From assembly GCF_024502345.1 (NCBI RefSeq), contig NZ_JALDNN010000001.1: DNA of 64,000 nucleotides; one strand, given 5' to 3'. Under the pieces are notes generated by a model, which was given only the letters and a program-made list of their open reading frames with translations, had not been told where the DNA came from and did no database searches. The DNA comes from Escherichia coli. Its GTDB lineage: Bacteria > Pseudomonadota > Gammaproteobacteria > Enterobacterales > Enterobacteriaceae. The position numbers and the translations under genes are program-made. The number at the start of each line of letters is the position of its first letter. Position 1 is the first letter of the stretch. Shown one piece after another: positions 2,265 to 46,319 of this stretch.

Positions 2265-2272
<8 letters not shown>
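464..2272 (+). CDS. frdA: fumarate reductase flavoprotein subunit
   Basis: 602-aa ORF with GTG start; N-terminal FAD-binding motif [14 protein letters not shown]; full-length match to E. coli FrdA from memory; heads the frdABCD operon. Confidence 0.95.
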
Positions 2273-3405
<1,133 letters not shown>

Positions 3406-7123: not shown

Positions 7124-8152
7124 ATGGCGCATATTGTAACCCTAAATACCCCATCCAGAGAAGATTGGTTAACGCAACTTGCCGATGTTGTGACCGATCC
7201 TGATGAACTTCTGCGTCTTTTGAATATAGACGCGGACGAAAAACTGTTGGCCGGACGCAACGCCAAAAAGCTGTTTGCCCTGCGTGTGCCCCGCTCATTT
7301 ATCGATCGCATGGAGAAAGGCAATCCGGACGATCCGCTTTTGCGTCAGGTACTTACCTCGCAAGATGAGTTTGCCATCGCGCCCGGATTCTCCACCGACC
7401 CGCTGGAAGAACAGCACAGCGTAGTGCCTGGTTTGTTGCATAAATACCACAACCGGGCGCTTTTGCTGGTCAAAGGCGGCTGCGCGGTAAATTGCCGTTA
7501 TTGCTTCCGTCGCCACTTCCCTTATGCCGAAAATCAGGGCAACAAGCGTAACTGGCAAACTGCACTTGAGTATGTTGCTGCGCATCCGGAACTGGACGAG
7601 ATGATTTTCTCCGGCGGCGATCCGCTGATGGCGAAAGATCACGAGCTGGACTGGTTGCTCACACAACTGGAAGCCATCCCGCATATCAAACGTCTGCGGA
7701 TTCACAGCCGTCTGCCGATTGTGCTCCCGGCACGCATCACAGATGCGCTGGTTGAACGCTTTTCACATTCTACGCTGCAAATCTTGCTGGTGAATCACAT
7801 CAACCATGCCAATGAGGTAGATGAAACATTCCGGCAGGCGATGGCTAAGTTGCGCCGTGTCGGTGTCACCCTGCTTAACCAGAGCGTTCTGTTACGTGGT
7901 GTGAACGATAACGCACAAACGCTGGCAAACCTGAGTAATGCGTTGTTCGATGCCGGCGTGATGCCGTATTACCTGCATGTGCTCGATAAAGTACAGGGCG
8001 CGGCGCATTTTATGGTGAGTGATGACGAAGCACGGCAGATTATGCGTGAGTTGCTGACACTGGTGTCGGGATATCTGGTGCCGAAACTGGCGCGAGAAAT
8101 TGGCGGCGAACCCAGCAAAACGCCGCTGGATCTCCAGCTACGCCAGCAGTAA
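7124..8152 (+). CDS. epmB: EF-P beta-lysylation enzyme EpmB (lysine 2,3-aminomutase-like radical SAM)
   Basis: 342-aa ORF with radical-SAM cysteine motif CAVNCRYCFRR; divergent from efp. Confidence 0.9.
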   Translation: MAHIVTLNTPSREDWLTQLADVVTDPDELLRLLNIDADEKLLAGRNAKKLFALRVPRSFIDRMEKGNPDDPLLRQVLTSQDEFAIAPGFSTDPLEEQHSVVPGLLHKYHNRALLLVKGGCAVNCRYCFRRHFPYAENQGNKRNWQTALEYVAAHPELDEMIFSGGDPLMAKDHELDWLLTQLEAIPHIKRLRIHSRLPIVLPARITDALVERFSHSTLQILLVNHINHANEVDETFRQAMAKLRRVGVTLLNQSVLLRGVNDNAQTLANLSNALFDAGVMPYYLHVLDKVQGAAHFMVSDDEARQIMRELLTLVSGYLVPKLAREIGGEPSKTPLDLQLRQQ

Positions 8153-8184
8153 CTGATTAAACAGGGAAGTCAAACATTAAAATT

Positions 8185-8285
<101 letters not shown>

Positions 8286-8546
8286 GAGCAACATACGCAA
8301 GTACAGCAACCTGTCATTAAACTGGGAAATTTAATCTTTGCCCGTTGCATAACCTTTAATTATTCATATACATTGCTGTTGTTACTCTTTATATAGCTAA
8401 CACCAATAATTAACCTTTCTTTTCTGTTTATATAGAGTGAGCACGGCTACTTATGTTATTTTAACAACTATTATTACCAAGCCCATTCATCTGGCTTATA
8501 AATTAAAATTAATTATTTAATTGAGAAATGGTTAGGGAGAACCTAC

Positions 8547-20038: not shown

Positions 20039-20144
20039 CAGAAACACAGAAAAGAAGCGATTTGCCGCAATCTTAAGCAGTTGAATCGCTTTTACTGAAA
20101 TTAGGTTGACGAGATGTGCAGATTACGGTTTAATGCGCCCCGTT

Positions 20145-20220
20145 GCCCGGATAGCTCAGTCGGTAGAGCAGGGGATTGAAAATCCCCGTGTCCTTGGTTC
20201 GATTCCGAGTCCGGGCACCA
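20145..20220 (+). tRNA. pheU: tRNA-Phe (GAA anticodon)
   Basis: 76-nt GCCCGGATAGCTCAGTCGGTAGAGCAGGGGATTGAAAATCCCCGTGTCCTTGGTTCGATTCCGAGTCCGGGCACCA with anticodon loop TTGAAAA and 3-prime CCA; position after yjdC corresponds to pheU. Confidence 0.97.
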
Positions 20221-21071
20221 ATATTCATAAGGCCTCGCTGCAAAGCGGGGCTTTTTCCTTTTCTGGCTACGGTAGATTTCTGGTCGTTGCGGCACGTTAT
20301 TTGTTTGCTGGATTTCTCGCCATTTTCGCAGTTGTTCGTTACTTTTAGACACCTCAACATCCTTTGATGTACCTTTTCCTAACCTCACAGCTACGGTCTT
20401 TCTACGGTCCTCTACGATTCCTTTCTCTCAGAGCATTCATAATAAAGTAGAAAATACGGGGAAAACGGGGGAATTATCATTTCGCCCTAATCCGCAGGTC
20501 TTAACGTGATTTTGTCGCGGGGAATAAGGTGGGGAAATCCCCAATAGCAAGCGGGGAAATCTGGCAGCATACCCCCTCCACCATTCACATGGGGATCTTC
20601 ACCAGTCCGTCCACCTACAACAAGCTCTTCTTGCCCTTTCACTTCTTACCGTTTTCAGAATCCCCCGTTCTCCACGCCATCATAAAATGATTTATCCGTA
20701 AGCTTAACGTAATGGACTGTTGAACCTGAGTGTCCGCTGTGAGCGAAAAGCGGAACTTCTCACATAGGTAATGAAGCGTTTCCTAACGTCAGGGTGTACT
20801 AATCAACGAAGAGCAGGTCAGAGGACTCGAACCGCTTTCCTCTTCCATCTACGTAGAATTCCAAGAATTTATGTGCTTTCCAGTTACAATTTAGCCATGC
20901 TAAGTTAGAAAAAGCATTGAGTACCTTAGGATTGTATCGATGATACTCTAAGGATCTTGGAGGCTTGTGAGGCGTAAGGTTCAAAGCCAATAGTTTATTA
21001 ATAGTCACACAAGTGGCTCTATTTTTCGCCTACAAACCTATATTTTTCATACAAATAAAAGAAGTGTATTT

Positions 21072-22490
21072 ATGAATACTCAGCAAATTAAGGTTGGCAG
21101 TGTACCTGAAATTATTGAGCTATTACCAAACTCTAGCGAGCAGGCTGATTCTCATCCTTTCATCCTATCGGCAAACAGTGCATGGGGTGAACAGGGAGCA
21201 GAAATATCAATAGAGAGATTACGCCAAAATATCGAGCCTTGGCTAACAGCTCTCTTCCAATCCGAACATTTAAATTTATTGATAGGTGCGGGTTTAAGCA
21301 CGTCTATTCAAATATCGGCTACAGATTCACCTCCAGCTGGAATGGGTTGGATCAGCGATCTAGCCGTATGTAAAAGTGAAATAGATGCATTTTCTACTCT
21401 GGCTGCCAAAGCTGCAGGTCGCGATAACGGAAATATAGAAGATCAAATTAGAGCTATTAATGAACTTATTAAAGGGCTTGAAATTCTGACAGTGTTGAAT
21501 ACCCCTCAACCTGAAAATCCTCCAGCTCCTCATGCTGCTTATAGAAATCTAAAAACGGATTTAGAAATACTCAAGGGAGAGCTTTCTCGCTGCCTAGGTG
21601 AGTTTTCAAGATCTGTGAGTGCCGGAGAATACTTGATTAAAACTGCTGAACCAAAGCGTAAAGAGGAAACTTTCAACTATCTAGTTAGTTTCTTGATGAG
21701 CTTTGCAAGTAGGACCGCTACTCGCGATAGGTTGCATATTTTTACAACAAACTATGATCGCATTATTGAAGTAGGTGCTGAGCTTGCTGGTTTGAGACTT
21801 ATAGATCGCTTTGTAGGAAGTATCGCTCCAGTGTTTCGATCTTCAAGATTGGAGGTTGATTATCACTATAATCCTCCAGGAATTCGTGGCGAACCAAGAT
21901 ATTTAGAAGGCGTAGCGCGTTTTACTAAGCTTCATGGATCCCTTGATTGGCATGAACAAAATAGCGCGATTAGGCGCTTTGGTTTACCTTTTGGAGCACG
22001 TTCTGTTGAACCTTTTTTAGAAGCTGAAGGCCATCAAAGCAACAGCTTTGAACAACTTATGATTTACCCTAACTCAGTAAAAGATAGAGAAACTGCCGAG
22101 TACCCTTATGTTGAGCTATTTCGAGATCTAGCCGCAGCAACTAGCCGCCCAAATAGCACATTAGTCACCTATGGCTATAGCTTTGGTGATGAGCATATCA
22201 ACAGGGTAATTGAAGACATGCTTACAGTGCCTTCGACTCATGTAGTCATAATTGCCTTCGGAGATCCGCTTGGAAGAATCATAAATTTCATTAATAAGAG
22301 TGGAAGAAAAGCACAGATCACCCTATTAATGGGAGACCATTTAGGAGACCTCAAGACTTTAGTTGATAACTATTTACCTAAACCAGCTATTGATAAAGCA
22401 TCAATAAAAATGACTGAATTGCTTAAGCAAAGAGGATTTATCCAGCCCAAAGAATTAGGTAATTCAACTGGCTCCGAGGTATCACAATGA
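21072..22490 (+). CDS. SIR2-like NADase component of a SIR2-HerA anti-phage system
   Basis: 472-aa ORF with SIR2-family motifs GAGLS (in LLIGAGLSTS), TTNYD (in HIFTTNYDRII) and HGS (in TKLHGSLDW); translationally coupled to the downstream HerA-like gene. Confidence 0.8.
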   Translation: MNTQQIKVGSVPEIIELLPNSSEQADSHPFILSANSAWGEQGAEISIERLRQNIEPWLTALFQSEHLNLLIGAGLSTSIQISATDSPPAGMGWISDLAVCKSEIDAFSTLAAKAAGRDNGNIEDQIRAINELIKGLEILTVLNTPQPENPPAPHAAYRNLKTDLEILKGELSRCLGEFSRSVSAGEYLIKTAEPKRKEETFNYLVSFLMSFASRTATRDRLHIFTTNYDRIIEVGAELAGLRLIDRFVGSIAPVFRSSRLEVDYHYNPPGIRGEPRYLEGVARFTKLHGSLDWHEQNSAIRRFGLPFGARSVEPFLEAEGHQSNSFEQLMIYPNSVKDRETAEYPYVELFRDLAAATSRPNSTLVTYGYSFGDEHINRVIEDMLTVPSTHVVIIAFGDPLGRIINFINKSGRKAQITLLMGDHLGDLKTLVDNYLPKPAIDKASIKMTELLKQRGFIQPKELGNSTGSEVSQ

Positions 22491-24520
22491 GTTACTTACC
22501 AATAGAAAGATTAGAACAATTAAGAATTGGATCTGTTGGATTTGTATCACCTAATGAAATTAGAGTTTCTTTAGAGATTGACTCCCCTGATTCAGTGTCA
22601 CTTCAAGGCGGTTCCCCCCGCAATTTTCCTCGAATAAATAGTTATGTACTGATCAGTAGCGATGATGGATTTCTCGTCGGACAGGTTGAATGGATTGCCG
22701 TAGAACACTCTCCATACCCCAAAAGAAGAGGCTTACAAGATTTTGGCTTGATAGATCTTCCTTTTCCACTTAAAAAGCTCAGTATCAATCCCGTTGGTAC
22801 TTTGAGAGTCGATAGAAAAAACGAAGATTACAAGTTCACAAGAGGAACAGATGCTTTTCCCTCGGTTGGTGACTCCGTGCTCCTGCCTACTGACCGGCAA
22901 TTAAAATCAATAATAGAATCAGGTGACAATAGAAGAGTAAAAATAGGGGACAGCCCCCTAGCTAACAATGCGGAAATAAAAGTGGACCCTGATAGGCTTT
23001 TTGGACGACATTTAGCTGTTTTGGGCAATACAGGTAGTGGTAAATCATGCTCGGTTGCGGGGTTAATTCAATGGTCTTTAGATGCTGTTTTACAACAGGG
23101 ACAGATTCCAAATGCTCGGTTCATAATACTTGATCCAAATGGAGAATACAGTAGGGCATTCGGCCCAGAATCAAAATACAAGGGTAAGCTATTACGTGTA
23201 GAAGCTAACACTGGTGCTGAAGAGATAGATCTTAAAGTTCCGTCATGGTTATGGAATAGCTCTGAGTGGGGTGCTTTCACTCAAGCGAGTTCAAAAGTTC
23301 AACTTCCTTTACTACGCCGAGCTTTGAGGGCGATGAGAAATGATGTTTTATCAGAAGATGATGTGACAATCCAAGCGAAACACTTCTGCGGTATCCTACT
23401 CGTATCCATACGACAATTATCAAGCCAAGGCCAGATATATGTGAATGGCGGCCATGCCAAAGGTTTCGTTGATAGTTTAACGTCTTGGAATAATAGCCTG
23501 TCCACATTAAACGACAAAATCGATAACAAACCTTTCGATAATCTAATAAACACGATGAATGTGTATCTTTCCTCTCGTATAGGAATAAAATGGCCTGAAA
23601 AACCTGAAGTTTCAGATACTGATCAGTTGATTAATGAATTAAAAAATGCATATGAAACGCTTGGAGGTGATGAACAAGGACTTCTTCCAAAAAGTGAAGA
23701 TTCGCCTATTCGTTTTAAAGGGGATGATTTTGTCGCATACCTAGAAGCTCTAGCTCAAGAGACAGGCACAGAGCAATTCGTTGAATTCCTTTTGACTCGT
23801 ATTCGAACAATGCTAGGTGACACCCGTATAAGTGCAGTAACAAATGATTCGGAACAGCCTATCAGTTTAACTAATTGGTTAGACACTTTTCTCGGTAGAG
23901 ATGGACAAGGTTCCATAACTGTTATCGATTTATCGCTAGTCCCTAATGAAATAATACATTTGGTAACTGCTGTAATTTCCAGAGTAACTTTTGAAGCATT
24001 ACAACGTTATCGAAGACTTAAGGGGAAACCACTACCAACAGTTATGGTTGCAGAAGAAGCGCATACATTTATTAAACGCTACAAAGAAGATAGTGAGGGT
24101 CAGTCAGTCTCTGACGTATGCTGCAAAGTGTTTGAAAAGATCGCACGTGAAGGCAGGAAATTTGGGTTAGGTCTTGTAGTTTCTTCCCAACGACCCTCAG
24201 AGCTATCTCCGACTGTGTTATCTCAATGTAATACTTTTTTGTTGCACAGGATTAGTAATGATAGAGATCAAGAGCAAGTCCATAGACTTGTTCCCGATAA
24301 CATGAGGGGGTTGTTGAGGGAGTTGCCATCGCTACCATCTCGGCATGCCATTCTACTAGGATGGGCTTCTGAACTTCCGGTTTTAGTTAGAATGAAAGAG
24401 CTTACTGAAAAACAAAGACCACAATCTGACGATCCCGATTTTTGGGATGTGTGGTCTAACACTACAGAAGAGCCTCGCGAAGTTAATTGGCAACCAATAG
24501 CTGATGATTGGCAAAGTTAA
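22487..24520 (+). CDS. HerA-like FtsK/HerA-family ATPase of the SIR2-HerA system
   Basis: 677-aa ORF with Walker A GNTGSGKS, Walker B MVAEEAH and SSQRPSEL region; start overlaps the SIR2 stop (ATGA). Confidence 0.8.
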   Translation: MSYLPIERLEQLRIGSVGFVSPNEIRVSLEIDSPDSVSLQGGSPRNFPRINSYVLISSDDGFLVGQVEWIAVEHSPYPKRRGLQDFGLIDLPFPLKKLSINPVGTLRVDRKNEDYKFTRGTDAFPSVGDSVLLPTDRQLKSIIESGDNRRVKIGDSPLANNAEIKVDPDRLFGRHLAVLGNTGSGKSCSVAGLIQWSLDAVLQQGQIPNARFIILDPNGEYSRAFGPESKYKGKLLRVEANTGAEEIDLKVPSWLWNSSEWGAFTQASSKVQLPLLRRALRAMRNDVLSEDDVTIQAKHFCGILLVSIRQLSSQGQIYVNGGHAKGFVDSLTSWNNSLSTLNDKIDNKPFDNLINTMNVYLSSRIGIKWPEKPEVSDTDQLINELKNAYETLGGDEQGLLPKSEDSPIRFKGDDFVAYLEALAQETGTEQFVEFLLTRIRTMLGDTRISAVTNDSEQPISLTNWLDTFLGRDGQGSITVIDLSLVPNEIIHLVTAVISRVTFEALQRYRRLKGKPLPTVMVAEEAHTFIKRYKEDSEGQSVSDVCCKVFEKIAREGRKFGLGLVVSSQRPSELSPTVLSQCNTFLLHRISNDRDQEQVHRLVPDNMRGLLRELPSLPSRHAILLGWASELPVLVRMKELTEKQRPQSDDPDFWDVWSNTTEEPREVNWQPIADDWQS

Positions 24521-24941
24521 TTAACTTAACTAATTTTTAGTAGTGTTATAAGTAGTGGCTTATATCTGACATGACAGTTTAGGTTAGTAGTTTCAATCTA
24601 ACAGTAAGTGTCCACGGTGACGTTTTCATACTCAAATCTCCTGAAATGTGGGAGATTTGAGTATGGTTGTCCCTTATGAGCGAGGAGCGGAAGTTCTGCT
24701 TTAAGTGTATCAAACCCTCCAGCAAAGATGTTCTTGAATGTAATGCCATAATTTCCCTAACATTCCAGCACAAATCAATTAACTCTCAGTCCATAGTGTA
24801 TTTTACTTAAATTAAAATCAAATACTCTAGGAATTAAAATAACAAGATCACTTGCGATTATGCTATTTTAAATTAATATTTTTGTTTTTACTGGGGAACC
24901 TTCAAAACACGGAGCCAGATTTCTTCGTAGCTACCCTGTTG

Positions 24942-25766
24942 CTAGGGTTTCAAGTATTCCCCTAAAGGAAAGAAATTTTTTGACAACTTTTGGGATTCAG
25001 CAATTTTAACCAAATAAATATAGAATCCCAACAGAGCACTGTTCTCGCTTTCCCCCCTCGAATAGTGAACATGCCCAGGCACCTTCCGGATGAGGAAACC
25101 ATTATTTTTTACCAAATAATACCCTCTATCTAAAATTGTAATTACATCAGGCATATCATCTAAATCGATATTATTTCCAGTCATGTAATTAAACAGCGAA
25201 TCTCGTAAGGTACTTTCCTCTGGACCTTGGAAGGCTAGTAGTAAGAATGGTGTTTTTCTCAAGGTTGCACACATCCCTGAGATTTCCTCTACTAATTGCA
25301 CTGTATTTTGGGGAATATTTTCTTTCATAAAATAACCATCGTCAATACCGATTGGATTGATTCTTACCAAACCTTTTGACCTAACGCAAGCATCTAAGGT
25401 TGTCTTAAGGTTTGAAGCTCCTTCGGTCATTGAGCCAGTGTTTAATGAAGATTTACATTCAATTAACGCTAAAGCTGAATCGACAGGGACCATACACTGA
25501 TCTTTATCATAACTAAGTTTTAAAGAATGTTTCGAGTATATGATAATATCCATCTGACTTGAGAGATTATCCTTAGAGTCAAAAACCTGTCCTGATGTAA
25601 TATCTAAATTACTAGGGAGATTTGCTTTTAAAAATTCCCTTATTACAATTTCTCTAGCACTTCCTTTGCTACTCCCGTTCGTCGTTATGGATGACAAATT
25701 AAATGCTGAAACCAAAGATGCCGTATGGTTTTTTAAGTGTTTCTGGATTAATTTCATAAAGCTCAT
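24942..25766 (-). CDS. hypothetical protein, possible PD-(D/E)xK-like nuclease
   Basis: 274-aa ORF in AT-rich DNA convergent with herA; candidate motifs E (GSAREIVI), D (MDIIIYS) and ExK (ALIECKS); no family assigned with confidence. Confidence 0.5.
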   Translation of the reverse strand: MSFMKLIQKHLKNHTASLVSAFNLSSITTNGSSKGSAREIVIREFLKANLPSNLDITSGQVFDSKDNLSSQMDIIIYSKHSLKLSYDKDQCMVPVDSALALIECKSSLNTGSMTEGASNLKTTLDACVRSKGLVRINPIGIDDGYFMKENIPQNTVQLVEEISGMCATLRKTPFLLLAFQGPEESTLRDSLFNYMTGNNIDLDDMPDVITILDRGYYLVKNNGFLIRKVPGHVHYSRGESENSALLGFYIYLVKIAESQKLSKNFFPLGEYLKP

Positions 25767-26194
25767 TCCATTTTAATTTATCTACATCGCTTAAAGGCAA
25801 ATGATGCCACCGGCTACCAATTAAAAATTATCTCAACCTGAGAGATTTTTCCAGACTCCAAACGAAAATAAAAAACTACTCGTCACGTCCCTCCTGGCAC
25901 ATAGCCGACACCAAAACCAGCAACATATGGACAACGGTCCCTGCCCTGATGGCAGGTAATTGTATCAGACTTAAACACATATTATTTCTGTGAACTCCCC
26001 CCAACGGCAGTCCTTTCCTCTGAAGACCAGAACCAGACCGTAAAGCCTGCTCTTTCTGCATTTCCCGTATTAATTCATACCATGTGGCACCAGCATTCCC
26101 TTCGCCACACCAGAAAATCAATTCCCCAATAAAAAAGTGCCGTGCCGGGGATGGGTCAACCCTGACGTTCTTTACACCAGTCACAGGAGGTTAT

Positions 26195-27379
26195 ATGTCC
26201 ACCCCCAAACGCTTCCGTTTTACTAATCAGCTCATTAAATCCCTGCCCCCTAACACATCCGATGCACGCAGTACCGATGCCGAATACAGCGACACCGAGA
26301 TTTCCGGCCTCAAGTGTCTGGTCAGCAGAAGAGAAGGTCGTAAAAAGTTTTTGCTACGCTACCTTTATCATGGACGAAAACGCGCCATCGCCATTGGTCA
26401 CTGGCCTGAAGTGGACGTCAATCTTGCTCGTCAGATTGCCATAGAACACAAACGTTCCCTTGCCACCGGCACTGACCCTAAGCAGGAGCGTGAAAACAAG
26501 AGAATGGAGCTGACGTTCGATGAACTCTTTAATCAGCATTATCTGCCATGGGCAAAATCCGCTAAACGCAGTTGGGGAAAGGATGTTCAGCGCTACCGCG
26601 ATCATATCCGTCCCGCCATTGGTCAGAGGCTGCTGAGCGATATCACACCAGCGAGCATTCTGCGCCTTCAGCAGACGTTAAGTACTTCCCTGTCAGCAGC
26701 TACCTGTAACCGTGTCATCGTACTCATTAAAGCCGTCTTTACATGGGCCGGAAGGCAAAGCATGACCTCTGTCCATCCGGCAAGGGTGGTACAGCTTCTC
26801 AGGGAGAACAACGCCCGACAGCGCTATTTCACCGAGGACGAAATTCGTCGTATTTTTCTCTCCGCCGATAACGATACCAGCCCCGTCGCGGCCCGCTATG
26901 TCAAACTGTTGTTACTGACCGGCCTTCGTCGTGATGAGCTGCGTCTGGCTAAGTGGGAGCATGTTGACCCGGTTAAACGCACCCTGTGGCTCCCGGAAAC
27001 CAAGAATGGCTATGGGCGGATTGTTCACCTTAACTCACTGGCGATGGACGTAATCAGAACGCTGCCAACGCAGCGGGGAAATCCGTGGTTGTTTATCGGT
27101 AAAAAACAAGGAATGCCGCTGAATAACCCCGTTAAAGCCTTTCAGCGTATCGTTCGTCGGGCGGGAATTTTCGACCAGGAAGTGTGTATTCATACCTGCC
27201 GCCATTCGGTTGCCGCCCTCATCGTGTCCTACGGCGGAACACTGTATGACGTTCAGGCTCAACTGGGGCACCGCAGCAGTCAGTCTTCACAACGTTATGC
27301 GCATCTTCACCCTCAGCGCTTACAAAACACCAGTCAGTTACTGGCGGAAAGGATAACGGCTCAGCTACCGTCCTTGTGA
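26195..27379 (+). CDS. tyrosine-type site-specific integrase
   Basis: 394-aa ORF from ATG 26195 preceded by AGGAGG; catalytic boxes TGLRRDELRLAKWEHVD and HTCRHSVAAL...LGHRSSQSSQRYAHL (R, HxxR, Y). Confidence 0.85.
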   Translation: MSTPKRFRFTNQLIKSLPPNTSDARSTDAEYSDTEISGLKCLVSRREGRKKFLLRYLYHGRKRAIAIGHWPEVDVNLARQIAIEHKRSLATGTDPKQERENKRMELTFDELFNQHYLPWAKSAKRSWGKDVQRYRDHIRPAIGQRLLSDITPASILRLQQTLSTSLSAATCNRVIVLIKAVFTWAGRQSMTSVHPARVVQLLRENNARQRYFTEDEIRRIFLSADNDTSPVAARYVKLLLLTGLRRDELRLAKWEHVDPVKRTLWLPETKNGYGRIVHLNSLAMDVIRTLPTQRGNPWLFIGKKQGMPLNNPVKAFQRIVRRAGIFDQEVCIHTCRHSVAALIVSYGGTLYDVQAQLGHRSSQSSQRYAHLHPQRLQNTSQLLAERITAQLPSL

Positions 27380-27434
27380 TAACAGAAAAGCAGAGGCAAG
27401 TGCCCCTGCTTTTTTTTTACTGTTCAGCCATCAG

Positions 27435-27791
27435 TCAGAACGGGATGGCCCCATATTCTTCATCCGGCACCCGGTTATCATCAAATCTGTTATAGAGTTC
27501 ACGAGCACACTCGCGCGCGTCTTTAATAGACATACGAGGGAACCTGCCGAGGGGTTCATAATAGCAGGCCCCTTCAAGCGTATAACGAGCCAGGAATTTA
27601 ATCTCACCGTTGGCAATGACGGCCCGGAGCGCAGGCTCGCTGCCATCGAAGATTTCACGAGAAATGCCGTGATAAAGGCACTCCGCCAGTGTGTTAACCA
27701 GAGCGTAATCATTGAATGAGGTTTTTTCTTCATTTTCGCTGCTGATAGCGTGAGGAAAACCGTCATAGTACTGGTCTGATTCAAAAATCAT
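27435..27791 (-). CDS. hypothetical protein
   Basis: 118-aa ORF directly downstream of and co-oriented with the DUF927-like gene. Confidence 0.45.
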   Translation of the reverse strand: MIFESDQYYDGFPHAISSENEEKTSFNDYALVNTLAECLYHGISREIFDGSEPALRAVIANGEIKFLARYTLEGACYYEPLGRFPRMSIKDARECARELYNRFDDNRVPDEEYGAIPF

Positions 27792-27840
27792 ACATCACCT
27801 TCTATTGGTTGTTATTCAGTCAAAATGGTTTTATTCAGGG

Positions 27841-29769
27841 TTAAAATTCGGTCATCACATTGCATTTCAGAAACGCTTTTTTGACCTGGTAGTAAGACTG
27901 CGCCATCGTCTTCAGCGCTCTTTTTTTATAGTGTCCGGCACTTTCGCCAAGCAGATAACCGGAACGCTCTAACGGTCTGGCCACATCAACGGTCTTAAGT
28001 CCCTTTTCAGAACAGAGCTTTTCAAACACCGATTCATAAATCAGGAAGTCGCCGGTTTTGTAATGGACGAATCCCCACATATCTCCCGGGCATCGGGCAT
28101 GTTCGTCACGCAGGGTGATAAAGTGCCTGCTGCTTTTTGTCACCAGCGTCAGCTGAAGCTCCTCCAGCATGTTACGCACCGGGTTATACTGATTCTGGTT
28201 ATCATCCAGCCAGCGTCGTGCAGCGGACATAACGGATTCAGCCACCGCATCGCTTTCGAAAGGTAAAAGGCCATATTTCAGCGCCTTCTCTCCTGCCAGC
28301 CATACCAGCGCAAATCTTTTCAGTCCGCGCCGCTGAACGCGGGTAATATCACGCCCCTCATCCCTCAGGGCCTCTTCCAGTGCGTTACAGCAATCATCTG
28401 TCTGTTCCTGGAGCCAGGATGAAAACTCTGCGTAGGTGCGAAGACCGCCAGCCGTATTTTTCCCGGATAACAGTTTGCCGATAAATGCAGGCCCGGCATG
28501 ACCATAAGCCTCTGCCAGCCCCGTCTTCAGTGCATCTGCACGGGCACGTGTTTCTGATACCGGTTCATCCGGTTTTTGAGCATCCTCAGGCAACAGTTCC
28601 ATACTGATGGCCCTGTGCTCCTGCCCTCCCTGTAACACGGCTTTCTGTTCAGCCAGCTTTTCGGAGATTGACATCTCACCGGTGGAGAGAATAAACATGC
28701 GCCATTTAAACGGCTCATCTGCCGTCAGGCCACGGTTCAGGCGCTCTTTTGCCGTACCTGACGTAATGTTGTAAAGCAGTGAGGAAAGTTGCTTATGATT
28801 ACTCGCACCCAGTTCATCGACGCAGGCGACCAGACCGGAATAGTCAGCGAGAAGGCGCTCCATCGCGTTAGGCGTGGTATTCCAGCGAATAATATTTACA
28901 TTCCCCCCACTACCCGGCTCGCTGCCATCACCATGGACCGATGCAGCCAGCATCAGGAGAAGCGTTTTACCGGTGGTGGATACGCCGTGAAAATGAAACA
29001 TGCCCACATCCATACCGGCAGGAACCAGAAGCATCGAAGCAAAGGACGCACTCAGTGCAAAGGTCTGCGCCCAGCCATGGACATTTTCCCGGATGAGGTT
29101 AATCCACTCCTCCAGGGCCCCACCTTTGTGCAGTCCGGGACGCACGCGGAATCCCGGCAGTAGATAATCAAACCCGGTCAGAGAGGTCACAACGGGCTCA
29201 TGACCATGTAAAAAGGCCATATCCTCCGAAACGAATCCCATCGCATCTGCCATCAGATAGACAGGCAGCGGTAAACTCCGGCAGCGCTGAAGAAAACGGT
29301 CAAAAAGGGCAAACTGCTGTGGAGAGGAGCCAACACAAAATCCACGATCTGCCAGTTTGCCTACTACCTGAGCACCGCTCTGAACAATATCCTCAAAGCG
29401 TACCAGGGCCTTAACATACTTACCCAGCCCGTTACCGGTCATCAGGCTGATCCCAAGACCGGACTCCTTATCTTTTCCACAAAACAGGGCGACAGGCACA
29501 ACTGGCGTGGTGCAAACCTGCACAGGTTTCTGTCCACCGATGTAGAAAAGGCCATTAGCCGTATTCACATAATGCCGTGGCAGCCCATCACCAATACCGA
29601 GTGAAGCGATATCATCTTCACCGACCTCAGTGTTTTCAGCACGCCTGATAATTGCTTCCGACATTTTGTTGAAATTTTTATCGCGGTCAGCAAAAGCGCG
29701 AATACGCTTAATCCCGGAAACCTTAGGAACATTAGTTGTCACTTTTTTATTCATGTGTATTACCATCAA
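27841..29769 (-). CDS. DUF927-type P-loop NTPase, putative replication initiation (primase/helicase-like) protein of an integrative element
   Basis: 642-aa ORF with Walker A GVSTTGKT and Walker B-like VACVDELG; co-oriented immediately downstream of an integrase gene. Confidence 0.6.
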   Translation of the reverse strand: MMVIHMNKKVTTNVPKVSGIKRIRAFADRDKNFNKMSEAIIRRAENTEVGEDDIASLGIGDGLPRHYVNTANGLFYIGGQKPVQVCTTPVVPVALFCGKDKESGLGISLMTGNGLGKYVKALVRFEDIVQSGAQVVGKLADRGFCVGSSPQQFALFDRFLQRCRSLPLPVYLMADAMGFVSEDMAFLHGHEPVVTSLTGFDYLLPGFRVRPGLHKGGALEEWINLIRENVHGWAQTFALSASFASMLLVPAGMDVGMFHFHGVSTTGKTLLLMLAASVHGDGSEPGSGGNVNIIRWNTTPNAMERLLADYSGLVACVDELGASNHKQLSSLLYNITSGTAKERLNRGLTADEPFKWRMFILSTGEMSISEKLAEQKAVLQGGQEHRAISMELLPEDAQKPDEPVSETRARADALKTGLAEAYGHAGPAFIGKLLSGKNTAGGLRTYAEFSSWLQEQTDDCCNALEEALRDEGRDITRVQRRGLKRFALVWLAGEKALKYGLLPFESDAVAESVMSAARRWLDDNQNQYNPVRNMLEELQLTLVTKSSRHFITLRDEHARCPGDMWGFVHYKTGDFLIYESVFEKLCSEKGLKTVDVARPLERSGYLLGESAGHYKKRALKTMAQSYYQVKKAFLKCNVMTEF

Positions 29770-29838: not shown

Positions 29839-31251
29839 TTACCCCATCGCCCGGTTAACGACTTCGTGGTAACGCGCCGGGGAAGCGTGCAAGTAAAGCT
29901 CCGTTACTTTGATAGTGCTGTGACCCAATAAGTCTTTGACGGTGTGAATGTCGGCCCCGCTCTCAATGAGCTTTGTCGCAAAGGTATGACGCATCTCATG
30001 GATGGTGAACGGTGGAATACCCGCAGCCTCACAAAGTCGTTTTTGCAGGCGACGCGGCTCAGCAACCGGATTGTCGGTTCCCTTGCCCGGAAATACCCAG
30101 CCTTCATCACCCAGATGCTGACGCTGTTCTGTCAGAAGAACGAAAGCCTTATCACATACCGGTACACGGCGTAGTTTGCCGTTTTTGGTATGGCGAAGGG
30201 TGATAACCTTGCGGCTCCAGTCCACATCTTCAAGACGAAGGTGACGGGTTTCCCCCAGACGCAGCCCCGTCAGGGCAAGGAACATGAGAAGAGCAAGGGC
30301 TTCATGATCGGGTTTACCATTACGCCAGCGCTCACAGACGTCCATCCAGCGCTGAAGCTGGGAGTCATCCATGGCACGGCGATCTGACGTCACTTCAGGC
30401 AGCGCTTTGATATAAAGCGCCGGAGAGCGGCTGATGTATCCCATGCGTATAGCCCAGGTAAACACCGCTTTAATGAGCGCCAGATGGCGGTTGCGGGTGG
30501 CAGGCTTGAGATCGAGATTATGCAGATAGCTCAGAATATCTGCCTCCGTCATACCTGCCAGCTTTTTGTCACCGAGAAGAGGGCGCAGGTATTTACGGAT
30601 CTTAGAAAGGTCGGTGTTAGCTGAACGCTTAACGCCCGTGCTGAGTACGCTTTTCTCATACTCATCCACAAGCTCATTAAACGTCATTTTACTGTGAGTA
30701 AGAAAACGCTCACCGTAAGCCTCAACGGCGGTCTTGAGCTCCTGAATTATTTTAAAGGCATGCTCCCTTGCATCTTTAATTGAAATTTCCGGGTAGCCTC
30801 CTACGGCAACGTAGATATTCTTTCCGCGAATACTTTTGCGGACAATAAATTTAATGCGACCTGATGGATAGAATATTGCCTTAAGTCCGGTTAACTTCTT
30901 ATCGCTGGTCTCGATTGTTTGTGCAGCTTGTACTGCACGGATTTTATATTCATCAAAAAGGGCTTTAGTAAAAACACCTCCAGTATTTTTAGGTGCAACC
31001 CCTGGATATTCTACAACATCAGATACTCCAGAGTCGGAATACCCCTGAGCTTCCACATCTACATTGAAGGAATTTTTATGAGCAGCTGTGATGCTCTTTT
31101 CATCCAGCACTTGCGTTATTTTATTTAAAGGGTAATTAACTTTCATAATATGTACATGGTCCTCTGAAAATTCAGATGATAATGAGTAATTTAATATGTC
31201 GGCCAACAATGGGATAAGCTTATTTATTCGTGGCATCACTTTCAAGCCCAT
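29839..31251 (-). CDS. tyrosine-type site-specific integrase
   Basis: ORF with catalytic boxes ALTGLRLGETRHLRLEDVD and HEMRHTFATKLIESGADIHTVKDLLGHSTIKVTELYLH; true start codon uncertain. Confidence 0.85.
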   Translation of the reverse strand: MGLKVMPRINKLIPLLADILNYSLSSEFSEDHVHIMKVNYPLNKITQVLDEKSITAAHKNSFNVDVEAQGYSDSGVSDVVEYPGVAPKNTGGVFTKALFDEYKIRAVQAAQTIETSDKKLTGLKAIFYPSGRIKFIVRKSIRGKNIYVAVGGYPEISIKDAREHAFKIIQELKTAVEAYGERFLTHSKMTFNELVDEYEKSVLSTGVKRSANTDLSKIRKYLRPLLGDKKLAGMTEADILSYLHNLDLKPATRNRHLALIKAVFTWAIRMGYISRSPALYIKALPEVTSDRRAMDDSQLQRWMDVCERWRNGKPDHEALALLMFLALTGLRLGETRHLRLEDVDWSRKVITLRHTKNGKLRRVPVCDKAFVLLTEQRQHLGDEGWVFPGKGTDNPVAEPRRLQKRLCEAAGIPPFTIHEMRHTFATKLIESGADIHTVKDLLGHSTIKVTELYLHASPARYHEVVNRAMG

Positions 31252-31423
31252 GAAAAATCAGCTCTTACATGCCCATTGACATTTAATACTCAAGTCAGAA
31301 AGACCATGATGATTCATCAGGAGTACTCCTGCTCAGGGAAAAGGGAAAATAGCGTTAAACCCTATAAAAAAATTGTGTTCCGGATGCATCGCCCAAAGTA
31401 AGTCAACTTTTGAGGCCCTGAAG

Positions 31424-32468
31424 GGCTTTGTTGAATAAATCAGATTTCGGGTAAGTCTCCCCCGTAGCGGGTTGTGTTTTCAGGCAATACGCACGCTTTC
31501 AGGCATACCTGCTTTCGTCATTTTGTTCAGCGCTCGTACCAGGGCCATAGCCTCCGCAACCTGACCATCGTAGTCACGCAGCGTCAGTGAACCCCCGAAC
31601 AGCTGTTTTACCCGGTACATCGCCGTTTCCGCTATCGAGCGACGGTTGTAATCTGTTGTCCATTTCCACCGCGCATTACGCTGATTAGCCACTGCACGGT
31701 TACGGTCTGCATATTCACCGGGCCAGTAACCCGCACCTTTTCGGGGAGGGATAAGCGCGCTGATTTTCTTACGCCGCAGTTCATCGTGACAGAGCCGGGT
31801 GTCGTAAGCGCCGTCTGCCGATGCTGCCCTGATTTTTCTGTGAGTCTGCCGGATAAGACCCGGGAAGGCTTCTGAGTCCGTCACATTGTTCAGCGACAGG
31901 TCAGCGCAGATGATTTCATGTGTTTTACTGTCAACGGCGAGATGCAGCTTACGCCAGATACGGCGGCGTTCCTGGCCATGCTTTTTGACTTTCCACTCGC
32001 CTTCACCGAAGACCTTCAGCCCGGTGGAATCAATTACCAGGTGTGCGATTTCACCCCGGGTGGGCGTTTTGAAACTGACGTTAACCGACTTTGCCCGCCT
32101 GCTGACACAGCTGTAATCCGGGCAGCGTAGCGGAACGTTCATCAGAGAAAAAATGGAATCAATAAAGCCCTGCGCAGCGCGCAGGGTCAGCCTGAATACG
32201 CGTTTAATGACCAGCACAGTCGTGATGGCAAGGTCAGAATAGCGCTGAGGTCTGCCTCGTGAAGAAGGTGTTGCTGACTCATACCAGGCCTGAATAGCTT
32301 CATTATCCAGCCAGAAAGTTATGGAGCCACGGTTGATGAGGGCTTTATTGTAGGTGGGCCAGTTGGTGATTTTGAACTTTTGCTTTGCCACGGAACGGTC
32401 TGCGTTGTCGGGAAGATACGTGATCTGATCCTTCAACTCAGCAAAAGTTCGATTTATTCAACAAAGCC
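31424..32468 (-). mobile_element. IS5-family, IS903-group insertion sequence
   Basis: 18-bp terminal inverted repeats GGCTTTGTTGAATAAATC at 31424..31441 and 32451..32468, flanked by a 9-bp direct duplication GCCCTGAAG (31415..31423 and 32469..32477). Confidence 0.9.
31480..32436 (-). CDS. IS903-group transposase (DDE)
   Basis: 318-aa ORF filling the IS; C-terminal segment DGAYDTRLCHDELRRKKISALIPPRKGAGYWPGEYADRNRAVANQR recalled as IS903-type transposase. Confidence 0.85.
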   Translation of the reverse strand: MKDQITYLPDNADRSVAKQKFKITNWPTYNKALINRGSITFWLDNEAIQAWYESATPSSRGRPQRYSDLAITTVLVIKRVFRLTLRAAQGFIDSIFSLMNVPLRCPDYSCVSRRAKSVNVSFKTPTRGEIAHLVIDSTGLKVFGEGEWKVKKHGQERRRIWRKLHLAVDSKTHEIICADLSLNNVTDSEAFPGLIRQTHRKIRAASADGAYDTRLCHDELRRKKISALIPPRKGAGYWPGEYADRNRAVANQRNARWKWTTDYNRRSIAETAMYRVKQLFGGSLTLRDYDGQVAEAMALVRALNKMTKAGMPESVRIA

Positions 32469-36248: not shown

Positions 36249-36962
36249 ATGACGCTGATAACACAAGAAAACGAACATGACAGACTGGCAACCCGCCTTT
36301 CCATCATCCTGAGCCGTTTGTTTCAGGGTGAAAAGCTGCATATCGGGACGCTGGCAGAAGAATTTGGAGTGACGACGCGAACGCTGCGACGGGATTTCAA
36401 CGTCCGTCTGACCTACCTTGATATTGAACAGAGCAACGGCGTGTATCAGCTTGCCTCACATTACTTTCGTCGCCGCACGGAACGGGATATGAAGATACTG
36501 GCGAGGTTGCTGCATCTTGACCGTCTGTTACCCGCGATGGATGCCAAACTACTGAGCCTGATGCTTGACGGGGAACGTCCCTCGCCATACAGGATTATGC
36601 TACCGGAGCCGCGCCAGAAACCCACCCTTTTCGGTGATTTCAGCAGACTGACGCTCGCCATACTTAACCAGACCCAGGTGCGTATCAGAACCGACGAAAA
36701 CGTCAGCCATACCGTTCATCCCTACCGTCTGCTTTGCAGCCATGCGGAGTGGTTTCTTGCCGGATGTACGTCATCGGGCGTGTTCGTTATTTCCCTGTCC
36801 CGAATCAGGCTGGTTGAGGTATTACCGGATACAACGTTTGAGATCGATAACACACTCATTTCGCTGATTGAACAGTCTGACTTTATGGAAGCCTTACCCC
36901 ACATGAACATTATTCATCAGATAATGCATTACGGGAGTAAACAGACGAATAATCGTAATTAA
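36249..36962 (+). CDS. WYL-domain transcriptional regulator (BrxR/CapW-like)
   Basis: 237-aa ORF with N-terminal HTH (HIGTLAEEFGVTTRTLRRDF) and WYL-type motif (HPYRLLCSHAEWFLAGC); sits upstream of restriction genes. Confidence 0.7.
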   Translation: MTLITQENEHDRLATRLSIILSRLFQGEKLHIGTLAEEFGVTTRTLRRDFNVRLTYLDIEQSNGVYQLASHYFRRRTERDMKILARLLHLDRLLPAMDAKLLSLMLDGERPSPYRIMLPEPRQKPTLFGDFSRLTLAILNQTQVRIRTDENVSHTVHPYRLLCSHAEWFLAGCTSSGVFVISLSRIRLVEVLPDTTFEIDNTLISLIEQSDFMEALPHMNIIHQIMHYGSKQTNNRN

Positions 36963-37002
36963 AATCACAACATATTATTAGTGATGATTAAATCACATTA
37001 AC

Positions 37003-37332
37003 ATGATAAGTGAGAAAGTTATGATTATCGATAAAGAATACGCACTTGTAAATGCAACAGCAAGACTTAACACTGACCTGAGGGATTATGAATATGAAAT
37101 AAACAACGCCGCCATCATAACATTTGGCAATGACCTCATTGAGGTAATCGTATATCAGTTCAGCTTTGTCATCAGCATCAGGGCAGAGGGTGAAAAAATA
37201 AAGCACGGCCTACTTGTTAACTTCGGTAAAAATATAGCAAGACAGGTTTCATCACTTTGTGCATCCGCAATGCGAGTCTACCCGAATGAAAAACACAAAC
37301 CGAGCCGTCAGCTTTTCCATTGCATAAATTAG
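37003..37332 (+). CDS. hypothetical protein
   Basis: 109-aa AT-rich ORF between the WYL regulator and the type IV restriction gene; may be non-coding. Confidence 0.3.
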   Translation: MISEKVMIIDKEYALVNATARLNTDLRDYEYEINNAAIITFGNDLIEVIVYQFSFVISIRAEGEKIKHGLLVNFGKNIARQVSSLCASAMRVYPNEKHKPSRQLFHCIN

Positions 37333-37393
37333 TTTGTGCAAAGACTGTACTACCGACACGCAATAAATTAAAATAGGCCAGCTAATATAACAT

Positions 37394-39271
37394 ATGAGGT
37401 TTATGATGGCTGGCCAGTATGAAAAAGCAATAACGATAAAACAAGCGATAGATTCAATTAATTTACGCCACTATCTTCTGCCTGCAATTCAGAGGAAGTT
37501 CGTCTGGAGCAGCAGTCAAATATGTTTGCTGTTTGATTCCATCATGCGAGACTACCCGATAAACTCTTTCATGATGTGGGATATCCGTAGTGCCAGTATT
37601 AAAAATGATTACAAATTCTATGAATTCCTGAAAGAATACTGTCAGCGATTTAATGAAGAAAACCCCTGCGTAGCAACAAATGCTGGATTTCATGATTTCA
37701 AGGCGGTGATTGATGGTCAGCAGCGTCTCACATCATTATATATTGGATTGTGTGGAACGTATGCGTATAAACAGCCCCGGGTGTGGTGGCCTTCGGCACA
37801 GGATGATCGCATCCTGCCGCCCAGAAAGCTTTACGTCGATTTAACAGCGCCACTTAATTCAGACGATGAGCTCATGATGAAGTATAACTTCAGGTTCCTG
37901 ACCGACAAGCAATACGCTGATTCACTTACAGACAACAAGCATCACTGGTTCTGCCTGCACGAAATATTCAAATACGAGCAACATGATTCGCCTGATGATA
38001 TTTTATTTAACGTTGTCGTACCAGAACTCGAAAAAAGAGGACTCATTTCCAGTGAATTTTCCAGAAAAACATTACTGAGACTTTATACAAAAATAAGAAC
38101 TGAGAACATCATCCACTACTTCAATGAGAGTAGTCAGGATATTGACCATGTGCTGGATGTTTTCATACGCACGAACAGCGGGGGGACAAAACTTGAGTTC
38201 TCCGACTTACTGATGTCAATAGCGGTAGCGCACTGGCAGGGTGATTTCAGAAGAGAACTGGATGAACTGACAAAAAACATTTATCAGAATAATGAAATGG
38301 GGTTTTATATTGAAAGAGACTGGTTCTTAAAAACCAGCCTGATGCTTATTGACTCTGACGTCCGGTTCAAAGTAAAAAACTTCACTTCAGAGGAGGTCGG
38401 TAAGATACAACAACAATGGTCTGAAATAAAATCCTGCATCAAGGAGACTTTTATTCTTATCAGGCGATTCGGCATCAATCCACAGTCTTTGATATCTAAA
38501 AATGCAGTCATTCCTGTGGTCTACTGGCTTTACAAAAAGCAAACCAGTGGACATCCATTATATACAACGATTAACCTCCTGAATAAAAACCACAATGAAC
38601 GCTCAGTAATTAGCCAGTGGTTTTACATGGTACTTCTGAAAGGGATCTTTGGAAGCCAGGCAGATGCGCTACTCACGAGTATCAGAGATGTAATGAAAAA
38701 TAGTCTTTCAGATATTCACTTTCCTCTTGAAAAGATTATTGACAGATATAAAGGCTCGAATAAAGACCTCAGATTTGACGACGAATACATCGAAAGCCTT
38801 CTCAATATCAGATATGGCGAAGGTCGTTGCCGCGCACTATTGCATCTTCTGTTCCCTGAAATGAATCCGACCGAGGTGTTTCATATTGATCACCTTCACC
38901 CAAGAAATCACTTCTCAAAGAAATATCTTGAAAAATTAGATTATGTTGCGAACTCACCAGAGAACCTCAGCTTTTATGAAAACCCGGAACACTGGGACAC
39001 CATACCTAATCTTCATTTACTGAATCATTCTCAGAATATAAGTAAACAGGATACTTCCCTGAAACAATGGCTATCTCAGCCATCAAACAACTATTCGCCA
39101 TCAATGCTGTTAGTTTCAGATGAAAATATTGAGTTCAGTCGCTTCCCGGAATTCTACAATGAACGAAGAAACGCCCTGAAGCAAAGACTACTGAATCGGG
39201 TATTTCTTACAACAAAAATAGATTCATCACCATCCACAATCGATACGGATGAAGAAATTCTCACCGACTGA
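37394..39271 (+). CDS. GmrSD-family type IV restriction endonuclease (DUF262 + DUF1524)
   Basis: N-terminal DUF262 hallmark DGQQR (in KAVIDGQQRLTSLYIG) and C-terminal His-Me finger-like HIDHLHPRNH; likely start at ATG 37406 after GAGG. Confidence 0.8.
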   Translation: MRFMMAGQYEKAITIKQAIDSINLRHYLLPAIQRKFVWSSSQICLLFDSIMRDYPINSFMMWDIRSASIKNDYKFYEFLKEYCQRFNEENPCVATNAGFHDFKAVIDGQQRLTSLYIGLCGTYAYKQPRVWWPSAQDDRILPPRKLYVDLTAPLNSDDELMMKYNFRFLTDKQYADSLTDNKHHWFCLHEIFKYEQHDSPDDILFNVVVPELEKRGLISSEFSRKTLLRLYTKIRTENIIHYFNESSQDIDHVLDVFIRTNSGGTKLEFSDLLMSIAVAHWQGDFRRELDELTKNIYQNNEMGFYIERDWFLKTSLMLIDSDVRFKVKNFTSEEVGKIQQQWSEIKSCIKETFILIRRFGINPQSLISKNAVIPVVYWLYKKQTSGHPLYTTINLLNKNHNERSVISQWFYMVLLKGIFGSQADALLTSIRDVMKNSLSDIHFPLEKIIDRYKGSNKDLRFDDEYIESLLNIRYGEGRCRALLHLLFPEMNPTEVFHIDHLHPRNHFSKKYLEKLDYVANSPENLSFYENPEHWDTIPNLHLLNHSQNISKQDTSLKQWLSQPSNNYSPSMLLVSDENIEFSRFPEFYNERRNALKQRLLNRVFLTTKIDSSPSTIDTDEEILTD

Positions 39272-39474
39272 ACGTTCAGCCCCGATAGTATTGGGGCTTC
39301 AGTATTTATCATCAGCGCAACGTTTCTACTGGCCTGGCTGAAAGAGCATTGGCTACACAACCGGGCAAACGAACTCTCAGTGCAACGTATGACATACAAA
39401 GCCTGTCATCAATATGAAATTGCGATAAAATCGGGCCAATAACAGTACTTAAGAATCATACAACAGGATACAAA

Positions 39475-42200: not shown

Positions 42201-42316
42201 CGGACCATTGATACCGGCAGGGTTTGTTCTCACCCGCCCGGTATCAGGCTTTAAGAATGCCGGAAGATGCTTCTGATACCCTTCCGGAATTTGCCAGATG
42301 ACGCACAGGATGCACC

Positions 42317-45300: not shown

Positions 45301-45433
45301 TGGGACGGAGCTAAATGAGACGCTACCAAAGCTCAGTCCGCTGAATCCTCAGTACAAAACGAAAAAGCAGACTGTATTCCAGAAAATTGGGGCATTTATC
45401 GAAAAATTTAAAGGGGTTGGAGGACACCTCTAG
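42317..45433 (+). CDS. hsdR: type I restriction enzyme R subunit (helicase/endonuclease)
   Basis: 1038-aa ORF with helicase motifs RPYQ, TGSGKT and DECH (IFDECHRSQ). Confidence 0.9.
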
Positions 45434-45654
45434 ATGTCAGATAAAAGAACAATGCGCTACCGCAATTTATGGGTAAGATTGTATCTTTTAACCTGCATCA
45501 GACCTGTTATGATCGATGAGGCGCTGGTTAATGTTAATGCTAACTGGATGAGTTTTAATCGCTGATTCAGACAATTAGCGTCCAGAACTCACAGAAACCA
45601 GTGCTTGATTTTGGATGGTAAAGTGCTGAACGGACGTATCACAGGAGAATGCTT

Positions 45655-46270: not shown

Positions 46271-46319
46271 GGGATTGAAAATCCCCGTGTCCTTGGTTCG
46301 ATTCCGAGTCCGGGCACCA
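46271..46319 (+). repeat. 49-bp direct repeat of the tRNA-Phe 3-prime end (island junction, att-site core)
   Basis: GGGATTGAAAATCCCCGTGTCCTTGGTTCGATTCCGAGTCCGGGCACCA is identical to tRNA-Phe positions 20172..20220. Confidence 0.95.

Follow-up and report, generated by a model that had tools for sequence, protein, structure and literature searches.

What are the short GGGGAA(A/T) repeats that follow a tRNA-Phe gene on contig NZ_JALDNN010000001.1 of Escherichia coli (assembly GCF_024502345.1)? In the sequence-only reading of the window, that is, of the whole 64,000-nt stretch analyzed, five copies were noticed and were taken as possible arm-type binding sites for an integrase or excisionase, or as an iteron-like array. 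The present analysis places them in the tRNA-proximal (P') attachment (att) arm of an integrative island. They are likely a selectively maintained set of protein-binding sites that characterizes a clade of tRNA-Phe islands whose tyrosine integrase, Int1, is at least about 70% identical to that of the window, as judged from positional conservation between diverged lineages.

The repeat array in the attachment arm

The tRNA-Phe gene is pheU, because it is placed after dcuA-cutA-dsbD-yjdC, and its anticodon arm, GGGGA-TTGAAAA-TCCCC, occupies positions 20171-20187. The last 49 nt of the gene are duplicated exactly at 46271-46319, with the identity starting at position 20172, inside the anticodon stem; the island therefore extends from the tRNA gene to position 46319 and measures ~26 kb. 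A conserved non-coding block of ~535 bp (20221 to ~20755), which always stands directly 3' of a tRNA-Phe gene or of a copy of the tRNA 3' end, is the tRNA-proximal arm (attL) of this island. The features of the arm and of the far att site are as follows.

20145-20220, + strand: tRNA-Phe (GAA) gene pheU, which serves as attL (ARAGORN, Rfam tRNA)
20229-20254, + strand: island-supplied intrinsic terminator for the tRNA (terminator scan; kept in all homologues)
20267-20285, + strand: composite site CTACGGTAGATTTCTGGTC with a CTGGTC half, a candidate true arm-type site
20391-20418, + strand: three CTACG(G/A)T repeats (20391, 20402, 20412) with 10-11-bp spacing, members of the C(N)GGTC family (position kept in the related islands L030/L031)
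20458-20474, + strand: G-run copies 1 and 2 (CGGGGAAAACGGGGGAAT), a composite of ~20 bp (motif scan, cross-lineage comparison)
20475-20518, no strand: spacer between copies 2 and 3 (lineage comparison)
20519-20559, + strand: G-run copies 3 (20519), 4 (20531, palindrome GGGGAAATCCCC) and 5 (20553)
20591-20597, + strand: direct copy 6 (GGGGATC), weaker and conserved to a lesser degree
20657-20676, - strand: inverted composite copy, reading AGAATCCCCCGTTCTCCACG on the + strand, 88% complementary to copies 1-2
20677-20755, no strand: block tail up to the left cargo junction, missing from cargo-free relatives
46271-46319, + strand: attR, the 49-nt copy of the 3' part of tRNA-Phe (extent of identity computed)

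Among the GGGGAAW motifs found by a scan of the window, those of the array start at 20458, 20468, 20519, 20531, and 20553, the first of them 238 nt past the tRNA end. All three strings quoted in the sequence-only reading were found where it had put them, with every copy on the + strand, and the near-palindrome GGGGAAATCCCC (20531-20542) coincides with copy 4. Relative to copy 1, the direct repeats lie at offsets of 0, 9, 61, 73, and 95. Beyond these five, three more copies belong to the array: the sixth direct one at 20591 and two inverted ones, AATCCCCC at 20659-20666 and, at 20538, one half of the palindrome. The full array thus comprises six direct and two inverted GGGG(G)A-W-W copies, one of the latter inside the copy-4 palindrome, and runs from 20458 to 20668 (238-448 nt past the tRNA end). 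According to a repeat-pair search, the whole ~20-bp composite of copies 1-2 recurs in inverted orientation at 20657-20676.

The total number of GGGGAAW motifs in the window is mildly high (24 versus 16 expected). As for the 5-mer GGGGA/TCCCC, eight occurrences were seen in 220 bp versus 0.30 expected, which gives a probability of ~1e-5 after correction for the number of windows, and the array after pheU is the sole site in the 64 kb with at least four occurrences per 220 bp. The cluster of G-runs is far beyond chance and the repeats are real.

The position of the repeats in island-proximal non-coding DNA, as first described, was borne out more precisely: they lie inside the island-side arm of the att site, outside the core DNA. 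The possibility that this DNA is simply the conserved pheU-cadC intergenic region of island-free strains was checked among 5,426 complete E. coli genomes. Part of the segment 20400-20620 is matched in only 182 of them and most of it in 61; the matches always adjoin tRNA-Phe or an att copy, at pheU in some strains and at pheV in others, and core intergenic DNA was ruled out.

Several other candidates were rejected. The ~20-bp inverted composites suggested a miniature inverted-repeat transposable element or an insertion sequence (IS) remnant, which was ruled out by the single copy per genome. No match was found among 50,697 phage records. A cargo promoter was discarded, with no sigma-70 consensus in 20100-21150 and with cargo orientation differing between strains. 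In the search for known or structured RNA, Rfam returned the tRNA only, fold z-scores were +0.61 and -1.42 relative to shuffled sequences, and the long-range pairs were invariant, with no informative covariation. No description of the att arm of this island family was found in the searchable literature; a paper on pheV islands deals with the intP4 family adjoining the tRNA only (PMC11537424).

The extreme end of the block, at the cargo junction, carries the hairpin-like sequence CCGCTGTGAGCGAAAAGCGG (20728-20752). The tail of ~80 nt that contains it is missing from cargo-free relatives and may belong to the junction and not to the arm.

Conservation of the array and what it says of origin, transfer and decay

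Homologues were sampled using an anchor outside the array (GCTACGGTAGATTTCNGGTCG), which yielded 14 loci in nine further genera. The block was found in E. coli and in the nine other genera, in every case directly after the tRNA or an att copy. Hosts of the island family include E. coli, Klebsiella, Enterobacter, Citrobacter, Edwardsiella, Erwinia, and others. Its center exists in two types, A (that of the window) and B. Between them, the left 230 bp are 91% identical, the center 57%, and the spacer between copies 2 and 3 only 45%, which is about random; the G-runs nevertheless stand at matching offsets, and the inverted copy follows ~200 nt further on in both. Two extra lineages, Edwardsiella and Citrobacter portucalensis, were added by way of relatives of Int1 with 82% and 81% identity. 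The GGGGA offsets from the tRNA end are listed below.

Window (type A): 238, 248, 299, 311, 333
Type B: 239, 248, 301, 311, 334
Edwardsiella: 241, 250, 302, 313, 336
C. portucalensis: 240, 249, 301, 313, 336

In a test against 20,000 Markov resamples of the arms, agreement with the window to within ±2 nt had P < 5e-5 for type B and for C. portucalensis and P = 0.002 for Edwardsiella. The register to the core is constant within 3 nt in the four lineages (Int1 identity at least 81%). The spacer between copies 2 and 3 keeps a length of 46-48 nt in five lineages and is AT-rich (57-81%), while its sequence cannot be aligned between lineages. Offsets kept despite diverged spacers are not what neutral DNA would show. 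Copies 1-3 are essentially invariant in intact islands. A by-eye check of the AT-rich spacer for the IHF consensus gave no consistent match across lineages. The proposal that the repeats are binding sites is thus upheld by positions that are kept across diverged lineages, as those of binding sites would be; the exact class of site is not the one first suggested.

The same offsets bear on the idea that the G-runs are functionless, namely decayed remnants of tRNA-Phe anticodon-arm or att sequence duplicated in past integrations. The motif and some of its flanks do resemble the tRNA: copy 4 of Edwardsiella has AAATCCCCGT in common with it, and copy 4 of C. portucalensis reads GGGGATTCTCCCGTCC. 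Several copies also vary in intact islands. Neutral remnants, however, would not be expected to preserve the offsets of five G-runs across four lineages with spacers ~45% identical, and this explanation is considered very improbable.

Decay of the array can be followed in scars that lack an integrase. In enterohaemorrhagic E. coli O121 and O103 strains positive for the enterocyte effacement locus (LEE), a ~480-bp scar of the block lies between the tRNA (or an att copy) and LEE and ends at a decayed att copy. In these scars copies 2 and 3 are destroyed and copies 4 and 5 weakened. The scars (O121 strain 2013C-4991, L005, 6122-6650; O103:H2 strain 12009, L006, 6001-6480) have the EspK/LEE region on one side and, on the other, pheU/pheV or an att copy lying behind a CP4-like island; the LEE scar accounts for most of the 61 block-holding E. 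coli genomes. The scar next to LEE implies that an island of this family was present before or alongside the LEE element.

The iteron-like alternative of the sequence-only reading can be put more specifically: the repeats might be replication-origin iterons of the excised circle, read by the DUF927/Cch-like self-loading helicase of the island, with the AT-rich spacer as the unwinding element. The island does encode a DUF927 protein with a weak match to the Cch helix-turn-helix (HTH) domain, direct and inverted copies flank the 46-48-nt AT-rich spacer, and a look at the DNA next to the helicase gene showed no iteron cluster. DUF927/Cch helicases are related to the Rep protein of SaPIbov1, and helicases of the Cch/SaPI Rep type read very short iterons, of 5 nt in the case of Cch2; in Staphylococcus aureus pathogenicity islands (SaPI) and in SCCmec (staphylococcal cassette chromosome mec) the helicase gene has the origin directly downstream of it (PMC7581432). 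The likeness consists in very short multi-copy repeats (5-8 nt) in an island with a helicase of the related family. Unlike the SaPI and SCCmec origins, the array lies away from the helicase gene, 7 kb from it and with the gene on the other strand, and in four lineages it holds a fixed register to the att core, which is unexpected for an origin. The same block accompanies helicases with identities of 95%, 57%, 48%, and 47%, whose divergence extends through the C-terminal DNA-binding region; Tatumella has the array without DUF927 or the second integrase of the island, Int2, and Yersinia, Rosenbergiella (inverted composite only), and Telluria have DUF927 without the direct array. With neither co-variation nor co-occurrence of array and helicase, the origin reading is disfavored and appears improbable.

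A further copy of the block bears on mobility. Eight Klebsiella conjugative plasmids carry the 49-nt att copy and a diverged block beside an ICE (integrative and conjugative element) of the SPI-7 (Salmonella pathogenicity island 7) type. In large plasmids of this kind (L014 and L015, e.g. pINF192.3; ~7950-8545) the att copy stands at the end of the SPI-7-type ICE and is followed by a type B block. The shared 49-nt att segment suggests that this ICE may form tandem arrays with the island, with possible co-mobilization. A copy beside an ICE also speaks for the idea that the block is an origin of transfer (oriT) by which the relaxase-less island rides along with a conjugative element (the 'iOriT' type of island). 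Numerous genomic islands have an oriT only, and defense genes are concentrated near it (bioRxiv 10.64898/2026.01.13.699239; this preprint contains nothing on tRNA-Phe islands), and the block is likewise non-coding, conserved, and abuts defense cargo. However, the plasmid matches in PLSDB are the att-adjacent Klebsiella copies only, for which an ICE inserted at an att copy accounts, and E. coli genomes hold no second copy; the search covered these collections and no ICE oriTs beyond them. In addition, no nic-like hairpin was identified, and the fold is no more stable than that of shuffled sequences. An oriT function is regarded as most improbable.

Proposed accessory core-like sites and the integrase

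Which protein, then, might read the array? Int1 is a candidate for arm-type recognition, as it carries an N-terminal Arm-DNA-bind_3 domain (E = 2.5e-13). The arm-type interpretation holds as far as the location in the att arm and this Int1 domain are concerned; it fails on three classical features, namely sequence, presence on both arms, and conservation in the family. The G-runs match the core half-site, whereas classical arm-type sites differ from the core. No GGGGA/TCCCC was found in the 837-bp attR-side arm (45434-46270) or near attR in AW1.7. As in the attP arms of the lambda family (P1, P2, P'1-P'3) and their P4-type equivalents, short element-side repeats stand beside the gene of an arm-domain tyrosine integrase, largely keep their position relative to the core, and are separated into groups by a bendable spacer; unlike those sites, they resemble the core half-site, are confined to one arm, at 240-450 nt from the tRNA end, and lack conservation in the family. 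Because these three defining features were tested and not found, the array is placed outside the classical arm-type class. It appears to act like a set of accessory sites of the att arm and most resembles accessory core-like sites.

Better candidates for the arm-type sites of this family are available. C(C/T/A)GGTC repeats occur in every arm of Int1 relatives examined (the L030-L038 arms; 37-99% identity; tRNA-Phe, -Leu, -Lys, and -Met), often with ~11-bp phasing, and in the window at 20267-20285, 20391-20418, and 26025-26043. The CTGGTC motif stands at +59/60 from the tRNA end in five arms: those of the window, Edwardsiella, C. portucalensis, Yersinia, and a tRNA-Lys-targeting relative. The C(N)GGTC repeats are more likely than the G-runs to be the true arm-type sites.

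As for the G-runs, the motif corresponds to the half-site of the tRNA-Phe anticodon stem (GGGGATT/AATCCCC). The stem reads GGGGATT-GAA-AATCCCC, and it is there that the att identity starts. Aligned on GGGGA, the two core half-sites are GCA-GGGGA-TTG and CAC-GGGGA-TTT, and the arm copies follow the pattern C-GGGG(G)A-WW, with the leading C in six of the eight. The repeats thus look like copies of the core-type half-site of the integrase. Integrases that target tRNA genes are reported to use symmetric sublocations such as the anticodon loop, the stem providing the flanking symmetry (bioRxiv 10.1101/2020.11.02.365908).

The reading favored here, which is tentative and a little short of an even chance, is that the array constitutes accessory core-like Int1-binding sites that help to build the recombination complex on the P' arm. 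Strand exchange would take place at the anticodon loop, as implied by the point where the identity starts, with GGGGATT/AATCCCC of the stem as the symmetric core sites of the integrase; the island supplies the 49 nt at the 3' end of the tRNA. The core half-site would be mimicked by the arm copies, C-GGGG(G)A-W-W, and Int1 would occupy these extra sites probably through its core-binding and catalytic domains and not through the N-terminal arm domain. Int1 bound to the G-runs and to the C(N)GGTC arm sites, together with the bendable 46-48-nt AT-rich spacer, could then wrap the ~450-bp arm into an attL/attP complex, and cargo would insert only beyond the array. An association with Int1 is indicated by one Pseudocitrobacter island (L029), in which the block is kept with an Int1 99% identical while the DUF927 protein and a small Arm-DNA-binding domain (Arm-DBD) protein are swapped (47% and 38% identity).

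Accessory core-like sites outside the crossover, with a role in complex assembly, are known from the integrase sites in the attP arm of phage HP1 and from DR1/DR2, bound by IntI1, in integron attI. In HP1, too, crossover takes place in the anticodon loop of a tRNA. Compared with these systems, the array is larger (six to eight copies over 210 bp) and has an inverted composite at its far end. In a bolder version of the same idea, the six to eight copies would be decoy half-sites of a core-mimic enhancer, which recruit the catalytic and core-binding domains of Int1, fix the geometry of the ~450-bp arm, and bound a protected cargo edge; this version is doubtful and quite unlikely. The enhancer might also stand in for a separate directionality factor. 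Such an arrangement is not described for P4-type integrases in the searchable literature.

A number of observations weigh against accessory core-like sites. The stem match of a 5-6-nt motif was noticed post hoc, and the estimated chance of a 6-nt match is ~0.001-0.01. Relatives that target tRNA-Leu, -Lys, and -Met carry no arrays of their own anticodon-stem half-site, and the idea of core mimicry therefore does not seem to generalize. The array starts ~290 nt from the presumed crossover, which is far for intasome sites, and has no counterpart in the attR-side arm, where TACGGT is absent as well. In Tatumella it is displaced by ~64 nt; some islands that look intact have mutations in copies 4-6. 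The array is absent in Yersinia (Int1 63% identical) and in relatives below 63%, and Rosenbergiella (Int1 70%) has the inverted composite only; given this absence and reduction, it is not essential to the integrase family. Finally, motif divergence in the LEE scars is about equal to their overall divergence, which makes scar decay a weak point.

The main alternative is that the sites bind a directionality factor, or a small DNA-bending protein of the island or the host, and not Int1, and that they control excision versus integration and/or repress the int1 promoter. Confinement to one arm and short same-strand repeats in roughly helical phase fit this alternative. Same-strand short phased repeats are typical of Xis/Cox arrays (X1-X1.5-X2 of lambda, the cox boxes of P2, the Xis sites of L5), which likewise form tandems on one att arm. 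In cargo-free relatives the array lies 400-500 bp upstream of int1, and the conserved CCGGGGATGGG stands ~50 nt before the int1 ATG. The island also encodes a 79-aa HTH protein (HTH_DeoR), and the gene of its 118-aa Arm-DBD protein holds the position that xis takes after DUF927 in islands of the MGIVchHai6 type (PMC7449626). Unlike Xis/Cox arrays, however, the array co-occurs with no canonical directionality-factor gene, is far from the core, and lies distal to the likely arm-type C(N)GGTC sites, not between these and the core. No canonical Xis, AlpA, or HTH_17 Pfam domain was found in the island; the 118-aa gene is missing from L030, L031, and L035, all of which have the array, and its product is 38% identical in the Pseudocitrobacter island with an unchanged block. 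Moreover, the array is kept even where 3-7 kb of cargo part it from int1. On balance, control by such a protein is judged unlikely, at about one chance among several.

The cargo slot and the surroundings of the island

From the tRNA-Phe gene onward, the island consists of the conserved block, a variable slot, a block upstream of int1, Int1, three genes on the - strand, the backbone, and attR. The features of its left part are as follows.

About 20756-25887: variable cargo slot (cargo genes span 21072-25766)
21072-22490, + strand: SIR2 (PADLOC; SIR2-HerA, E = 2.7e-154 and 2e-252)
22487-24520, + strand: HerA (PADLOC)
24942-25766, - strand: PD-(D/E)xK/NucC-like DUF6602 protein
25888-26194, no strand: conserved block upstream of int1
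26195-27379, + strand: Int1, tyrosine integrase with Arm-DNA-bind_3, Phage_int_M, and Phage_integrase domains (domain search)
27435-27791, - strand: 118-aa protein with a weak Arm-DBD match
27841-29769, - strand: DUF927/Cch-like helicase with a weak Cch HTH match
29839-31251, - strand: second integrase, Int2

The block upstream of int1 contains an inverted TACGGT..CTGGTC composite (26025-26043), and the CCGGGGATGGG before the ATG is invariant. Int1 itself is 98.7-99.2% identical across all islands with type A or type B blocks. Other strains (L003, L004, L007-L010, L012) fill the slot with unrelated genes, mostly anti-phage. Among these cargoes are a dCTP deaminase with anti-phage function, restriction endonucleases (alone or next to an ADH/LysR pair), DUF3825, and an ABC-three-component system. 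The left junction of the slot is sharp to within a few nt, and the right one is ragged. Edwardsiella and C. portucalensis have no cargo in the slot, so that the block abuts the int1 upstream region and the tRNA gene is ~750 bp from the ATG. At least eight distinct cargoes all begin distal to the inverted copy and never within the array. Because all observed cargo junctions lie beyond the inverted end, this suggests that the functional arm reaches to about +450-480.

The database match closest to the window is strain cS33a, which differs downstream of the cargo; the coordinates were taken from the window itself. In cS33a an IS903-like element lies between the cargo and int1, the island is cut off by IS1, and cadCBA is lost. 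The window also has an IS903-like element (31422-32468), between Int2 and the backbone. Between the convergent int1 and Arm-DBD genes lies an inverted repeat of 19 nt, flanked on either side by T-runs (27380-27419), which is probably a bidirectional terminator. In the Pseudocitrobacter island (859-3153, corresponding to 27435-29769 of the window), the DUF927 gene and the small Arm-DBD gene are replaced as one cassette, with Int2 97% identical, which looks like modular exchange of a putative replication module.

The backbone (36249-45433) holds further genes of defense type, namely a WYL/HTH regulator (36249-36962), a HEC-05/GmrSD-like protein (37394-39271), and a type I restriction-modification system (39475-45433). 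Right after attR follows a second island with its own arm (46320-46516), which contains GTGGGTATAATTGCGGGTATACCC repeats, and a P4-type integrase (46517-47782); together they make up a tandem array of islands at pheU.

The plan of a conserved backbone (integrase and att) with a slot in which unrelated defense systems replace one another is also that of the defense-cargo hotspots of integrative elements and satellites (PMC10121019), a comparison that concerns the context and not the repeats. Unlike in those hotspots, the slot lies here between the att arm and the int promoter, and the array is its left border. A finding of this kind is unsurprising and is of use to research on site-specific recombination and on defense-island hotspots; if the array were inert, what is described would be a conserved island end. 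The conserved block and the block upstream of int1 can serve as anchors for finding new slot cargo. Should the array function as part of the att site, it would provide a testable case of core-like accessory sites in a tRNA-targeting integrase and would delimit, on the left, the minimal cis-acting end of a tRNA-Phe island family that is widespread and shuttles anti-phage systems, among them SIR2-HerA, dCTP deaminase, restriction enzymes, and ABC-three-component systems.

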